Shown here: piece by piece, positions 31,720-52,188 of the stretch
Position numbering within the stretch: the first letter of the stretch is position 1
Layout: each line of letters starts with the position of its first letter
Assembly (NCBI GenBank): GCA_963765895.1
Contig: CAVXZB010000023.1
Span: 32,001 to 96,000 of the forward strand
Source of the DNA: an uncultured Nitrososphaeraceae archaeon
GTDB lineage: Archaea > Thermoproteota > Nitrososphaeria > Nitrososphaerales > Nitrososphaeraceae
Reading direction: 5' to 3'
Length of the DNA stretch: 64,000 nucleotides
Notes under the pieces: generated by a model
Seen by the model: only the letters and a program-made list of their open reading frames with translations
Told to the model about the DNA's origin: nothing
Database searches by the model: none
Made by a program: the position numbers and the translations under genes

Positions 31720-33148
31720 GCCTACTTATGAATTCTCCGTGACCCAGGCTTCTCTTTTCTACTTCTCCGTTTTCCATTACTACAATTCCTCTAACCATAG
31801 TCAAAACAGGCCATCCCTTCAATTCCCAACCGTCATATATAGTGTAGTCAGAATAAGACTTGAGTAGTTGTGAAGATACTCTTTTCTTTAACGCTAGATC
31901 AACGATTATGAGGTCGGCGTCTGAACCAGGTTGGATAGTACCCTTCCTTGGATAAAGGCTAAAGATCTTGGAGGTATTATAACTAGTTACTTCAGCTACT
32001 CTCTCCAAGCTAATTCTATGTTTATTAACACCATTGCTGAGAAGCACAGGAATCATAGTGGCGAGACCTGGAAACCCAGCCAACGCAGACCAGATATCCC
32101 CCTTTCCAACTTTCATTGATAGTCTGCTAGCAACATGGTCGGTACCAATAGTATCGATTTGGCCATGTCTTAACGCAGACCATAAATGGTAGAGATCGCT
32201 TTTTGATCTGATGGGCGGGACAACCTTGCCAAGTATACTATCAAAGTCCGTGCTGTGAGTAAGATAATGTGGACACGTTTCAATGTATAAACTGTTCCTT
32301 CCACCTCCCCTTTTTCGCTGTTGCAATATCGTTTCTAGAGCCCGTGCGGATCCAATATGTACAAAGTATAATTCTGAATTAAATTGTCGTGCAAATGAAG
32401 CGGCTTTAGTTATGCTTCTTATTTCAGATAAAGCCGGTCTGCATCTAGACCATGTTTCCAAGATGGGCAGGTTCTCCTGTTTGTTTTTGATTGCCCTCAT
32501 ATATTCAGCACACATCAACGGATCTTCTGCGTGAACCATTGTTAAAGAATTATTTATTTTTGCAGACATGATTATTGAAGAGAGCAATTCATCATTCACA
32601 TTTACCTCAGAGTATAGCGGTTAATCTGATCCAGGTTCAAGATCCACATAAATATGGTTTAGCTCTCCACCCAGGTTCATGTATACCTTAAAGGAATTGA
32701 TTCCAATTTTTTCTGCAAGGTATGGGATATCTTGGATCTGGGACCGATGTAGAATTGAAGCGTGAATAGAATAATCTACATAATGGTTACCCCTACTTGC
32801 TGAGAGCTGTTTTTCGATATCTGTGTAACTCCCAGTCATCCTAAGTATTCGCATCATAGTCGTTACTCCTCCTATGCAGGCTGATGCTGACTCCGTCTGT
32901 GCAGCCTCTTCTATCGGCCTATATACACCGTAGTGAACATGTGGATCTATCACACCCGGGAGCACGTATTTATCATTAGCGCTTATTATTTTAGAAGCCT
33001 GAATGTTATCAATTGACCGTTGAAGTGATTTGATTTTTCCATTCTCTATCAAGATATTCGTCTGAATGATCCCGATTTCTGGTATAACCACGCCCTTGGC
33101 GTTAGCAATTAGTGTGTCACAGACGTTTTTCATAGTACTAGTTGTCAT
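31700..33148 (-). CDS. dihydroorotase/allantoinase/hydantoinase-type cyclic amidohydrolase with in-frame TAA at 32621-32623
   Basis: PGVIDPHVH, GGVTT, SFKVYM, MVHAED, ETCPHYL, GTDH, KGTIQPGSDADL; the two ORFs share a frame. Confidence 0.88.
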
Positions 33149-44225: not shown

Positions 44226-44694
44226 TTATATTAATATCGCTAAGCAAATTTATTTATTGGTTATGCTATTTGTTATATTAAGTAAATACTTTATACTTTA
44301 TGCAGAGCGATTTTAGTATAAAATCATATTGAAATGTCTACGCGTTGCATGGTCAACCAATCTAAATGTGGTTACGAGCATAATGAAGTATTTTTACATT
44401 AGCATCTAAAATTTTGTTCAATTTAAATCTAAATCGAATTTGAATATTGAATAAGAATAGATTGTCTGTATTTGTAGTCATCTTTGGAGGCATGAAAATC
44501 TAAAATAGTCCTCTGAGATCCAACCTATCGGGCTCGATAAAAATATGCTTTGCATTAATTATTTCAGTATGAGCGTAGAATCTCTCATGCGCCCGTTTGT
44601 ACGATGTCAAAATATAACATGAAATACCACTAGTCACTGTACTTATACAATTGTTACGGCATCAGAAACAGTACTAAAGTTAGGTTGGAAAAAT

Positions 44695-44707
44695 TAAAGA
44701 AAAAAAA
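44695..44707 (-). terminator. oligo-T terminator of the His-rich peptide gene
   Basis: A-run (gaaaaaaaa on +) about 40 nt past the stop, reading as a T-tract on the minus strand. Confidence 0.45.
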
Positions 44708-44746
44708 TTAGGCTATTATGCCTTGTTTGTTATCGAGTTTTTACCT

Positions 44747-44980
44747 CTAGTGGCGATGGTGGTGGTGGTAATGATGGTGGTGGTGATGATGATGGTGGTG
44801 GTGATGATGATGGTGGTGGTGGTGATGATGATGGTGGTGGTGGTGGTGGTGATGATGATGGTCGTGATGACCCCCAGCAAATGCCTCATTGCTTACAATA
44901 GGTGCTATCGCAAGCAAAGATAGCGCAATCGCTAGTACGCCTACCCCAATGATTAATGACGTCTGTTTTGTAAACATCAT
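44747..44980 (-). CDS. secreted poly-histidine peptide (Sec signal peptide plus GGH-led His tract)
   Basis: MMFTKQ + hydrophobic core + AFA cleavage motif, then GGHHD(H)30YHHHHRH; CAT and CAC codons interspersed. Confidence 0.85.
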   Translation of the reverse strand: MMFTKQTSLIIGVGVLAIALSLLAIAPIVSNEAFAGGHHDHHHHHHHHHHHHHHHHHHHHHHHHHHHHHHYHHHHRH

Positions 44981-45000
44981 TATACTAGAACATTCTCACG

Positions 45001-45010
45001 TATATAAAAG
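45001..45010 (-). promoter_or_regulatory. TATA box of the His-rich peptide gene (leaderless arrangement)
   Basis: CTTTTATATA on the minus strand, 21-30 nt upstream of the ATG at 44980. Confidence 0.6.
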
Positions 45011-45218
45011 GACTGATAGAAATTTCTAAAGATTATACGTGTAATATATTCAGGTATATTATTATTTAGCGGTAATCTGGTAGAATTTTTATATTGTTAT
45101 TTAATACTGCATAACTATTCTTATAAGCTACATTCGAGATTGAGGAATATATTCACTAGGACAGCTCTAATCCAAAGTCATATCTAACAAATTCGTAAGT
45201 TGGTAATGTAATCTGGTA

Positions 45219-46223
45219 TTATGTACCTACACATCTCAATTTGCTTAGGAGTAAGTGCCTGAACCTCGAGCCGTTGACATAAAATGCGATCAGTACCTGT
45301 CCTGCCGAGTCCTTTTTAAATATAGATAACCCACGTTCACTTCCTTCATCGGTCAAAATTTCCACTTCTCCTTTAACGAACCTAAAAAGTGAAGGCTCTT
45401 CTAGCATGAATACGGCTATTACATCGTGCAAATATAGAACGGTATTTCGTTCTAGTTTGTAATCAAGCAATGATGATAGGAATTTTGAAGCTTCAGAGGG
45501 GGATCTGCCATGGCCATTAGTATTACAAATTCTTTTCACTAAATCCTTATTTATTGAACACTTAGGATTCTGAGTGAGATTAAGTCCAACAATCCTTATC
45601 ATGAATCGATGTTTAGCATTTAGGACTATTTTAGCCGCCTCAGGGTCAGAATAAAAATTGAATTCTACAGATCTCTTTATATCTCCAGTTGATTTTCCAG
45701 TTTCACGATATGAACCTCCCATTATTGAGATTTCTTTGATCCTCTGCTGAGATTTACCTTCTTTCATTACCATCGTTGCAATGTTAGTTAGAGGGCCAGT
45801 AGCTATGATTGAAATATTCTCATCCGGATACTTTTGTAAAATAAATTCAATGAAGTCCGAATAATTGTGTGTTCCCTTTAGAGCATCAGGAGTGATTCTA
45901 TTCCAGAGTTCGTTCATCTTTTTATCGTCGAGAACCAGATTACCTAATCCTCGCCTTCCGTGGCTTACTTCTCTTCCTATTTTCATTTTAGAGGACTGTG
46001 AGCGGTTCCTTAAGGATCTTCTTGCACCTTGGAATACAGGAATATTCAGCCTATTCTCAATTTCAAGCGCCTTCAAAACATTCGACATGCCAATATTAGG
46101 ATTGACGTTGCCATTTACGGTACTAATGCCAACGACACAGATATTACTTGACCTCAAAGCCACTAAAATGGCAATGACGTCATCGATACCTGAATCTACA
46201 TCTAAAATGACTCTTCTAAGCAA
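45219..46223 (-). CDS. inosine/uridine-preferring nucleoside hydrolase
   Basis: ILDVDSGIDD, TVNGN, HGRRGLG, TGPLTN, MGG, EFNFYSDPEAA, LHD; start probably TTG at 46223. Confidence 0.9.
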   Translation of the reverse strand: MLRRVILDVDSGIDDVIAILVALRSSNICVVGISTVNGNVNPNIGMSNVLKALEIENRLNIPVFQGARRSLRNRSQSSKMKIGREVSHGRRGLGNLVLDDKKMNELWNRITPDALKGTHNYSDFIEFILQKYPDENISIIATGPLTNIATMVMKEGKSQQRIKEISIMGGSYRETGKSTGDIKRSVEFNFYSDPEAAKIVLNAKHRFMIRIVGLNLTQNPKCSINKDLVKRICNTNGHGRSPSEASKFLSSLLDYKLERNTVLYLHDVIAVFMLEEPSLFRFVKGEVEILTDEGSERGLSIFKKDSAGQVLIAFYVNGSRFRHLLLSKLRCVGT

Positions 46224-48928: not shown

Positions 48929-50424
48929 CTATATCCCAGGAACAAATGGTGGTCTATTGATATTAATCGGCGAATCCTGATGGTGGTGAAGTTTCAAAGT
49001 CTGATGTGATTTAACAGGTGTCGTGGAGATTATAGCTACGGATTGTGTCATTGCATCGTGATGGTTGACAACGTTGAACATGCCCATCCATCCTAGGTTG
49101 GTAAATTCAGTAGTATGGGCGTGAAACATATACATTCCAGGTTTAGTATAGTTAAATTCAACTATCCCCCTATCTCCCTGTGCTAGTTCAACGATATCGG
49201 TTCTATAAGTAGGATTTAGCCCGGTGCCGGCAGGATAATATTCGAACATATTTCCATGCAAGTGAAAATTATTCATGGGATCAAATTCAAGCATGTTGAC
49301 CAAGTAAATTCTATACTGCTGTCCTGTCGCCAGCTGTATTGGATAGTCATTATAGATAAATGCAGGACCGTTCACGCTGTATATCTGATTTCCTGGTCCT
49401 GAACCCTCATCTGATGCAGTTGCTTTCTCAAAATTTGTGCGCAAAGCAGAGGCCGTTGGAGGTTGTTGTTCTGTAGGCTGAAGCGTTAGGACTATAATCG
49501 TCTTTCAGGTTATAGCCATTCATTAGCATCACCATCTCTCTTGCTGGAGACCTAGGCACCTTTGGATCGATTATCATGGCACCATATAGTCCATGATTAA
49601 TATGCGATTGCACAGGCGCCACATGACAATGGTAAGGATATACACCATACGGGTCAGCTGTGAATGTATAAGTGTAGTGTCCTCCAGGTGGTATAGTGCC
49701 GGCCATACCGGTTACTCCATCCATCATCCCGGAATGAATCGAATGCATATGTAACGAGTGAGGATGAAGAGACGATTTCGAATTATAAACTGTGATCTTT
49801 ACTAGATCTCCTTGAGTCATTCTCATCGTTGGGCCCGGAATTGTATTGTTGAAAGTCCATGCATTATACAGTACCTGGGTCAGTTTTGTTATCAGTAATT
49901 GGAAGAACATTGTTCTCGCTAACTACCAGTGAGAACTCTCTTAATGTAGTACCGTTTTGTAACTTGGTAACGTGTCCACAATTAAAGTATGTCAAGTATT
50001 CAACAGGATTTGGTCTCTCACTAAGATTGGTGGCACAGTTTTTTCCAATTGGTACAGACATCATAGATGGGTTTGACGTAATCGGACTTGTCGCCACTAT
50101 TGGGTGTGTAGGGACTTGCGTTTCATCGTGCGGTGTGTCTGCATTGTCTTTCATTTGCAAATTTTCATTATTAGAATCAGCTGTATTGGATGCAACGGTC
50201 TTACCACTATCATTATTTTCTCCCTTATCGTGATGAGACTTTGCATACAGATTGATAGAATTTGGACTGCCATACGTTATTGTGGAAAGGACTAGGAGGC
50301 CTATAACGGCGATTAGAAAGTAGCTTTGAACAGTAAGTCTTCTGGTATTCAAAAAAAATGTACTACGAAAAAAAGTCATGTCCCTGCTCCGAATTATAGT
50401 TTCTAAATAATCTGAAATTGGCAT
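48929..50424 (-). CDS. two-domain multicopper oxidase, secreted (frameshifts at about 49873 and 49486)
   Basis: AWTFNNTIPGP, PHSLHMH, YPYHCH...HINHGLYG (T1 site in domain 1), NFHLHG and MFHAH in domain 2; N-terminal hydrophobic segment. Confidence 0.9.
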
Positions 50425-51789: not shown

Positions 51790-52188
51790 GTGGCATCGAA
51801 GACTCTTCTAAAAAAGAATAGAAAGGATGGCGCTATAATAGTATCAACATTTCCAGAGCCCCGCATATTTTCAGCTGTAGCCAGAAATTTGATTGTGGAT
51901 AAACACCTGTGTGCATGCATAAACGTGATTAAAATTGACTCGCTTTATCATTGGAAAGGCAAGCTGGAAATTCATGAAGAGTACCTGGCTCTATTCAAGT
52001 CAACACGCAAAAGAGTACCTGCTCTCATACATGAAATAGAAAAAATTCATCCATATGAGGTTCCTGAAATTATAGAGCTGAAAACTAACAGATTCTCTAA
52101 GGCGTACCTCTCTTGGTTAGATAGCGAAACGTCTGACTATCCCGACACACTCCAAGAAGATAATGAGAAAAAATCTGGCAAGAAATAA
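51790..52188 (+). CDS. cutA: divalent-cation tolerance protein CutA
   Basis: LCACIN, SLYHWKGK, E...LFKS, HPYEVPEII. Confidence 0.93.
   Translation: MASKTLLKKNRKDGAIIVSTFPEPRIFSAVARNLIVDKHLCACINVIKIDSLYHWKGKLEIHEEYLALFKSTRKRVPALIHEIEKIHPYEVPEIIELKTNRFSKAYLSWLDSETSDYPDTLQEDNEKKSGKK

Follow-up and report, generated by a model that had tools for sequence, protein, structure and literature searches.

Histatin 5 of human saliva is a short, secreted, His-rich peptide whose N-terminal Asp-Ser-His forms an amino-terminal Cu(II)- and Ni(II)-binding (ATCUN) site that is followed by His pairs. Methanobactin, the chalkophore of methanotrophs, is likewise ribosomal in origin, made from a short precursor and secreted, and it serves a lifestyle based on a copper-dependent monooxygenase. 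Here we compare with these and other systems a small gene in a 64,000-nucleotide stretch of DNA (below, the window; positions 32,001 to 96,000 of contig CAVXZB010000023.1, assembly GCA_963765895.1) from an uncultured archaeon of the family Nitrososphaeraceae. The gene, listed as an open reading frame (ORF) at 44747..44980 on the minus strand, encodes a signal-like leader followed by a near-homopolymer of His. His-rich metal-binding peptides are a kind already known; this gene belongs to a sizeable, unannotated family of putatively exported peptides.

SilE and PcoE are small, exported by a cleaved signal and disordered, and they bind many metal ions via His (PMC5008109). These bacterial proteins have spaced His/Met motifs and are encoded in metal-resistance operons, whereas the archaeal peptide is close to a His homopolymer, contains no Met and is encoded by a stand-alone gene outside any operon. 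The periplasmic cupredoxin CopI, also exported, binds Cu(II) mainly through its disordered, His-rich N-terminus (PMC13308877), but this stretch has about 6 His in 18 residues and is attached to a folded copper protein, and the archaeal peptide has no folded domain. Hpn and Hpn-like of Helicobacter pylori, small and very His-rich, serve as Ni stores and buffers (PMC8704837); these cytoplasmic proteins lack a signal peptide, contain stretches of Cys or Gln and have no homology to the archaeal peptide that we could see. The poly-His-poly-Gly peptides of viper venom are secreted, contain an uninterrupted His run and bind Zn, Ni and Cu (work cited in PMC6821194), but in these venom protease inhibitors, which are released from a larger precursor, about 9 His precede the poly-Gly. 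Histatin 5, compared here by composition only, differs in being eukaryotic and antifungal; it has about 30% His and owes its positive charge to Lys/Arg. Methanobactin, which is mentioned in PMC13003922, is a heavily modified RiPP (ribosomally synthesized and post-translationally modified peptide) with oxazolone/thioamide ligands, made by MbnBC and re-imported through a TonB receptor, whereas the archaeal leader looks like a Sec signal. Neither MbnB/MbnC nor TonB-importer genes were found as neighbours in the window or among 66 neighbouring ORFs (at least 100 amino acids) at 41 other loci of the family. To our knowledge, archaea have no TonB system. Having no homology to any of the compared systems and a different architecture, the archaeal peptide is a member of none of them. 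A literature search on His-rich peptides combined with Thaumarchaeota or names beginning with Nitrososphaer, and on copper in ammonia-oxidising archaea, found no description of exported poly-His peptides.

Structure, transcription and conservation of the poly-His gene

From its first ATG, the ORF encodes 77 amino acids (MMFTKQTSLIIGVGVLAIALSLLAIAPIVSNEAFA followed by GGHHDHHHHHHHHHHHHHHHHHHHHHHHHHHHHHHYHHHHRH) and ends at a TAG stop codon (44747-44749). The part after Ala-Phe-Ala, GGHHD-H30-YHHHHRH (44750..44875), comprises 42 residues (5641 Da), of which 37 (88%) are His in runs of 2, 30, 4 and 1; re-reading the sequence in this way confirmed the poly-His ORF of secreted type that the initial annotation had described. 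The His codons come in CAT/CAC blocks that form an imperfect (CAY)n repeat (44755..44866), in which Tandem Repeats Finder called a unit of period 18 (5.4 copies, 91% matches, 44755-44851) and a second repeat of period 3 (36.7 copies, 44757-44866). Upstream of the ORF lies a TATA-like sequence, TTTATATA (45008-45001), which is invariant in three species. Downstream, the 3' untranslated region (44695..44746) contains a T8 tract (44707-44700) with a weak AGGC/GCCT hairpin beside it (44710-44723) and further T runs. Two other frames across the repeat, a plus-strand Met/Val-rich frame (44723-44923) and a Thr/Ile frame (44716-44889), were rejected, since it is the minus-strand His frame that agrees with the substitution pattern, the TATA box, the T-tract and the leader.

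To examine transcription, the region 44300-45400 of the window was compared with three metatranscriptomes from three studies (runs X15, X16 and X18) and with a soil DNA run (X1). The repeat itself (44749-44871) was skipped in this comparison, and the X1 DNA contigs break at 44721 and 44872. The RNA evidence consists of assembled contigs of related strains, with 95-99% identity to the window, which give neither strand nor level. Such contigs cover 44872-44979 in X15 (word depth 68.6), 44874-44978 in X16 (word depth 66.9) and 44874-44960 in X18 (word depth 16.2). On the other side of the repeat, positions 44695-44748 are covered by five short X15 contigs with depths of 21-602, none of which extends below 44695, and these contigs stop within the T-tract. 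No RNA contig was found on the flanks 44300-44694 or 45003-45400 in any of the three runs. The DNA run, in comparison, covers 27 of the 30 bins of the same region, including a contig that passes through 44872-45118.

The X15 contig stops at 44979, where it runs into Illumina adapter sequence, and the match of the X16 contig stops at 44978. Two studies thus place the end of the molecule (44978..44979) 0-1 nt before position 44977. The TATA box is centred about 26 nt upstream of this end, a distance typical of archaeal promoters. Together with the 3' contigs that end in the T-tract, the position of the 5' end indicates that the transcript is a monocistronic, leaderless RNA of about 280 nt. Translation therefore probably starts at the second ATG (44977-44975) and not at the first. 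Besides the RNA ends and the TATA spacing, this is suggested by the first ATG reading TTG in the orthologue of a second genome (G001), and by relatives that begin with M-L/F-T-K. The probable coding sequence thus runs over 44750-44977 on the minus strand and encodes a protein of 76 amino acids, with a leader of 34 residues.

The gene is syntenic in a further genome (G002), where the same nucleoside hydrolase and DUF790 genes stand on either side. Between the source genome (G000) and G002, these flanking genes are 70% and 73% identical at the DNA level, against 87% for the small gene together with its promoter. Across 37 leader codons, the dN/dS ratios of three pairs were 0.047, 0.097 and 0.234, at dS values of 0.79, 0.58 and 0.16. 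In the 29 shared codons of the His tract, each pair among three orthologues differs by 11-13 synonymous CAT/CAC changes and by 0-1 non-synonymous changes, and the three species use different CAT/CAC repeat units that all code for His. This pattern fits selection for His, though slippage of units that encode only His could give the same picture. G000 and G002 share 93% identity over the 100 nt that precede the start, and a stretch of about 95 nt upstream of the gene (44981..45075) is almost invariant in three species. It contains a perfect inverted pair of 8-mers, CACGTATA and TATACGTG (44997-45004 and 45034-45041), which are 29 nt apart and of which one arm overlaps the TATA box; this pair is a possible regulator site, for example for a repressor. 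A second copy of the conserved upstream module was not found in the genome, which leaves the idea of a shared regulon without support. The sole Rfam match, to sR2, remained below threshold (18.3 bits against a cut-off of 42).

These data bear on the possibility that the gene has no function, being a (CAY)n microsatellite that expanded by chance in a small secreted ORF and is transcribed as noise. Triplet slippage would indeed keep the frame without selection, and the structure of the tract does vary between species. Nevertheless, the low dN/dS of the leader (0.05-0.23), a promoter that is more conserved than the flanking genes, the assembly of RNA from this gene and not from its neighbours in three studies, and the existence of several orthologue groups with at least 12 genes in one genome make this explanation extremely unlikely. 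The earlier view that this is a real expressed gene and not a bare microsatellite thus holds, with the RNA contigs, purifying selection and synteny all in agreement.

A family of small peptides with a common leader

The source genome contains 33 stop-to-stop frames with at least 9 His within 20 amino acids, and in 12 of them a signal-type leader is directly followed by the His-rich stretch. When the frames with at least 14 His in 20 amino acids are considered, 8 of 11 have such a leader, and only 192 of the 33,271 frames of at least 45 amino acids in this genome pass the same leader rule. The corresponding hypergeometric value of 1.7e-16 is not a true probability, because paralogues share ancestry; even so, the arrangement of a leader plus poly-His exceeds chance. 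The eight strongest paralogues include (the slash marks the end of the leader) AFA/GGDHHKDKD... and AFA/SGDHHKDKD..., which are rich in His, Lys and Asp, as well as AFA/HSDNN-H27-N, AFA/HSD-H9-FFHHRHH, AYA/DG-H28-QS, ALA/YKHKHSD-H30-NKYNKH and AHA/GPGSCPKCF-H18-DGHHGGHGICPPRCA; the gene studied here is the eighth. In most of the paralogues, a TATA-like box precedes the start by 25-40 nt and the stop is followed by a T-tract.

Two profiles were used to define the distribution of the family, one built from the eight strongest paralogues (A1) and one from 27 exact translations (A3). With A1, each of the 6 other genomes of the genus yielded members (at E ≤ 1e-3, as many as 21 matches in one genome), and several orthologue groups recur across the species of the genus. 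At E ≤ 1e-6, 21 of the 151 Nitrososphaeraceae genomes, the source genome included, contain members (genus g1, 6/6; g16, 7/11; g2, 3/21; g4, 2/21; g12, 1/21; g18, 1/4), and 12 further genera of the Nitrososphaeraceae gave none. No A1 match was obtained in 16 other families of the order, and the family was not found in any of 300 genomes of the phylum outside the Nitrososphaeraceae, including the small-genome family f13 (0/43).

Searching 1.84 billion representative proteins with A3 returned 125 matches at E ≤ 1e-3, of which 12 had E ≤ 1e-10, and nearly all of them are 38-168 amino acids long. By a simple rule, 76 of the 125 have an archaeal-type leader; among the other 49, some combine a His-rich stretch with a preceding leader that looks bacterial or Tat-like. 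For the 76, the median mature part is 37 amino acids long; the mature residues are 20.8% His, 12.3% Gly and 10.2% Tyr, and many of the mature parts are repetitive (YGHYYHH, GWGWHH, FGFHR). As judged from these alignments, the family is characterized by a conserved putative export signal and a hypervariable, low-complexity mature part, with pure poly-His as one extreme. It appears to be a lineage-specific group of fast-diversifying, small exported peptides.

Both the studied gene and its G002 orthologue are absent from a collection of 15 billion proteins, and the family members listed from it are named just "hypothetical protein". An entire class of small secreted peptides thus seems to be lost from view through gene calling and low-complexity filtering. 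In Pfam-A, the best match was DUF6095 at 17.9 bits against a cut-off of 23.8. All NCBIfam matches were far under their cut-offs and fell on His-rich loops. The curated families compared include SilE/PcoE, Hpn, UreE and ZnuA loops, none of which reached its cut-off, and the ESM Atlas gave no usable match. A word-based protein search with the leader returned only P0002 and P0003. Searching genome contigs with the whole protein returned one locus, and 604 pattern matches were mostly poly-His noise.

The metagenomic peptides P0004-P0127 have leaders of the type MNSKT...LLFASGPIVGNQQA[FL]A and their mature parts are built from repeats of His, Tyr, Gly, Trp and Phe (YGHYYHH, GWGWHHGW, FGFHRGFGF, YGGYGGY), with Tyr as the commonest first mature residue (25/76). 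A set of longer, putatively exported relatives combines the same leader with a short His cluster (GGHHHH, GGHH or SNHHHNHHH) and a conserved two-Cys module rich in Gln, Asn and Gly. This module reads approximately QSLAQANxCGNG...CQNxxSQIQGxxNA, is sometimes repeated and, for the one that was tested, has no Pfam match. It was found at G000:C19:199013-199096, C19:179721-179822, C78:5614-5994 and C48 (plus strand, a 121-amino-acid ORF), in loci L031, L032, L039 and L054, and in P0002. Tandem arrays occur at L047 (G111:C119), with three copies within about 1 kb, and at L031/L040 (G023:C80), with two to three longer members. The source genome also contains two identical frames, VASA-H18-LHLLCALAIPLARQVPPPEVR (C25:22138-22269 and C59:34174-34305), with a long His run and no signal leader. 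Periodic frames of the types (HHHLL)n and (HHHYHLR)n, at C84:341933-342280 and C16:9356-9613, are probably other frames of repeats.

Predicted export and cleavage

The leader of the studied protein (34 amino acids; 44876..44977) begins M-F-T-K-Q, with one Lys in its n-region, and continues with an uninterrupted hydrophobic core of 22 residues, a Pro at position -9 and the polar c-region SNEAFA. It thus has the charged n-region, the core and the c-region of a Sec signal cleaved by signal peptidase I, and 7 tested paralogues also pass the leader rule. The residues at -3 and -1 of the site A-F-A/G are small, and the +1 residue is not Pro. In the 27 aligned relatives of profile A3, the Ala at -1 is the sole invariant column, and conservation reaches at least 90% for the Ala at -3 and at least 70% for the Pro. 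The commonest cleavage triplets in the 76 representatives with a leader were AFA (23), ALA (16), AYA (5), ASA (5), VFA (4) and AQA (3). The other A-x-A triplet of the leader, A-I-A, is followed by Pro, and signal peptidase I does not accept Pro after its cleavage site. The genome encodes an archaeal signal peptidase I (TIGR02228, 79.9 bits against a cut-off of 51.85). Export and the cleavage site are predicted from these features of the leader, and signal peptidase I probably cleaves after Ala-Phe-Ala, as the initial annotation had proposed for a leader of the Sec/signal peptidase I type: all sequence features of such a leader are present, the A-x-A is the most conserved feature of the 27 relatives and the peptidase gene exists. 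Altogether, we consider it highly probable that the peptide is a genuine exported product.

Other types of leader were rejected by inspection. In class III (type IV pilin-like) archaeal signals, a Gly or Ala at -1 stands right before the hydrophobic core and after a charged residue; the studied leader has K-Q-T-S before the core and no [KR][GA] junction. The Cys lipobox of lipoproteins is missing as well, and RiPP and double-glycine leaders do not match, the leader being hydrophobic and no maturation genes lying nearby. Since the core of 22 residues is long enough to span the membrane, the leader could also stay uncleaved and hold the His tail as an anchored brush on the outer membrane face, close to the copper enzymes, and its length counts against release of the peptide. 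An anchor, however, would have no need of the conserved A-x-A triplet at the end of the leader, and the Pro found 6-9 residues before this triplet also speaks against one. Pro is also not among the eight commonest +1 residues at the 76 sites assigned by rule, to which this count applies; it was seen at +1 only at mis-set sites that were later reset by eye (L028, L036). Conservation of A-x-A makes an anchor less likely than cleavage, and we regard an anchored brush as improbable.

Metal binding, copper and other possible roles

We give roughly even odds (about 0.5) to the reading that the main role of the peptide is the multivalent binding of divalent transition metals by an exported, disordered chain. 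The product of the leaderless mRNA would cross the membrane via a Sec-type signal peptide, and cleavage by signal peptidase I after Ala-Phe-Ala would yield a disordered peptide of 42 residues, 88% of them His, which would be released between the membrane and the S-layer or beyond. There, its imidazoles could bind divalent transition metals, so that the peptide might buffer, store or capture metal at the cell surface, with Cu(II) bound first and then Ni(II) and Zn(II), as the Irving-Williams order predicts. In the orthologue group studied here, the Gly-Gly-His N-terminus would add one tight site of the ATCUN type for Cu(II) or Ni(II). The data show how the gene is built, that it is transcribed in situ and under selection, and which family it belongs to and how that family is distributed; export, the cleavage site, the binding of metal and the choice of metal are what we infer at this point.

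The support for copper is of two kinds only, chemical and ecological. Cu(II) is the strongest imidazole binder among the divalent metals, and ammonia-oxidising archaea run their energy metabolism on copper proteins. Copper complexation is reported to limit these archaea (PMC6976641), and a soil strain is thought to have unknown mechanisms of copper acquisition and storage (PMC13003922). With regard to metals other than copper, prokaryotic His-rich low-complexity regions are described as enriched in Ni/Co-binding proteins (PMC6821194). A transcribed, putatively exported poly-His family in the soil lineage is in this respect a concrete candidate for metal handling at the cell surface. A multicopper oxidase and CutA1 (51790-52188) are encoded in the window, 4-7 kb from the poly-His gene, which lends weak support to a metal role.

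Several observations weigh against this metal-binding role. The immediate neighbours of the gene encode a nucleoside hydrolase and a DUF790 protein, and no copper family was found among the 66 neighbouring ORFs at the 41 other loci. These ORFs include histidine kinases, MFS transporters, three PsbP-like proteins, one matrixin and one CDF transporter; with a single CDF transporter and a single Zn protease in the set, neither a metal transporter or chaperone nor a copper enzyme recurs as a neighbour. None of the seven cupredoxin genes of the genome has a His-rich N-terminal segment (0/7). We also scored the two motifs reported for copper limitation in N. viennensis, TTCSGSMTTTGWACYANT and RATTTAAABATAGATTTAAATAATAAS (PMC7785015). 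Upstream of the 12 paralogues, their best matches had 4-7 and 9-11 mismatches, respectively, where random 320-nt windows gave means of 5.28 and 10.43. Many relatives contain fewer His and much Tyr, Gly, Trp or Phe, and defence peptides and matrix proteins likewise pair a conserved signal with a hypervariable mature part. Finally, as noted above, the RNA contigs stem from related strains and are silent on strand and level.

The initial annotation had read the mature N-terminus as an ATCUN motif, and this reading is supported in part, within the orthologue group but not across the family. The Gly-Gly-His that directly follows Ala-Phe-Ala has its His at position 3 and a residue other than Pro at position 2, is kept in the orthologues of G000, G001 and G002 and in P0002, and two longer proteins of the source genome also begin with GGHH after the leader. 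The motif may thus be a real feature of this orthologue group. A third-position His is not conserved across relatives, an outcome that the initial annotation had named as refuting. From 48 distinct genome-derived frames, one without a leader was dropped and the cleavage sites of five were set by eye; in the resulting 47 relatives, His is found at +3 in 14 and at +1 in 9, the latter mostly as HSD. Among the 76 representatives, 15 (19.7%) have His at +3, compared with 20.8% His overall in the mature parts. In the 191 leader-bearing ORFs of the source genome, the His counts at mature positions 1-10 were 7, 4, 15, 10, 8, 11, 8, 13, 11 and 13, so the enrichment at position 3 is at most mild. As His at +3 is about as frequent as composition predicts and most relatives lack it, the ATCUN site is, by the criterion of the initial annotation, not the functional core of the family.

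The further proposal that the peptide is a copper scavenger found no backing in the genomic context, as no copper gene is consistently nearby and the N. viennensis copper motifs do not rise above background. It is not a general copper scavenger of ammonia-oxidising archaea, given that the family was not found in the 300 genomes of the phylum outside the Nitrososphaeraceae, among them the 43 genomes of f13. A narrower version is that the peptides are ribosomal, unmodified and chalkophore-like: GGH would capture Cu(II) from organically complexed soil copper, the poly-His would relay or store the ions near the ammonia-oxidation machinery, and the paralogues would tune affinity and pH response. 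We regard this as unlikely. If true, it would describe the first copper-capture molecule of ammonia-oxidising archaea, for which, according to a 2023 review, no chalkophore is known (PMC10432482).

The hypervariable mature parts also suggest a role in competition or defence, either as a histatin-like antimicrobial that acts as a polycation at acid pH or via bound metal, or as an agent that withholds metal from competitors. A conserved signal, a hypervariable low-complexity mature part and many paralogues per genome form the pattern of host-defence peptide families. Some paralogues are rich in both His and Lys (GGDHHKDKDHKDKHHK...), and other members may resemble in composition the Gly/His/aromatic-rich antimicrobial peptides of animals and plants. 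The calculated charge of the mature peptide rises from about +1-3 at pH 7.5 to between +18 and +28 at pH 6. On the other hand, the peptide has almost no net charge at pH 7.5, none of the 41 loci has an immunity, ABC exporter or processing gene beside it, and the orthologue groups are kept across the species of the genus rather than turning over. A defence function therefore seems rather improbable to us.

The same change in charge would suit a proton buffer outside the membrane, where the imidazoles (pKa about 6) could absorb the acid of ammonia oxidation or aid NH4+/NH3 exchange, and ammonia oxidation does release protons outside the membrane. Buffering by this means would be costly, relatives with few His would be unsuited to it, and marine and other ammonia-oxidising archaea manage without the family; we consider this role very unlikely.

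A structural role would draw on the composition of the relatives. Here, peptides rich in His and Tyr would use metal-imidazole bridges or oxidative coupling to cross-link the envelope, extracellular polymeric substances (EPS) or biofilm, or would let cells stick to mineral or humic surfaces in a pH-dependent manner. The many Tyr/Gly/His-rich relatives resemble the metal-hardened structural proteins of animals in this respect. The longer relatives, in which the same leader and a short His cluster precede a small two-Cys domain, and the confinement of the family to the soil lineage also fit such a role, as does the biofilm growth described for soil ammonia-oxidising archaea (PMC12448741). A homopolymer of 42 residues, however, has no second interaction module, and no glycosyltransferase or EPS genes are linked to the family at the 41 loci. 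We therefore view a matrix or adhesion function as doubtful, and continue to favour the binding of divalent metals. Whatever their role, natural His30 peptides would co-purify in immobilized metal affinity chromatography and could confuse metaproteomic and metal-speciation work on soil.

The G000 assembly comprises 4.91 Mb in 88 contigs, with 36.8% G+C, is 88% complete and encodes archaeal AmoA (PF12942). The amoA match, outside the window at C24:168102-168652, is split into three pieces in three frames. Likewise, the multicopper oxidase of the window (48929-50424, minus strand) is split into three overlapping ORFs at 48929-49444 (Cu-oxidase_2), 49428-49910 (Cu-oxidase_3) and 49864-50424 (no family). 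These splits may be indel errors in the assembly, or the genes may be broken. The DNA and RNA runs that contain parts of the stretch are labelled as soil or plant metagenomes, with the exception of the RNA run X20 (share 0.06), which is labelled as a marine metagenome.

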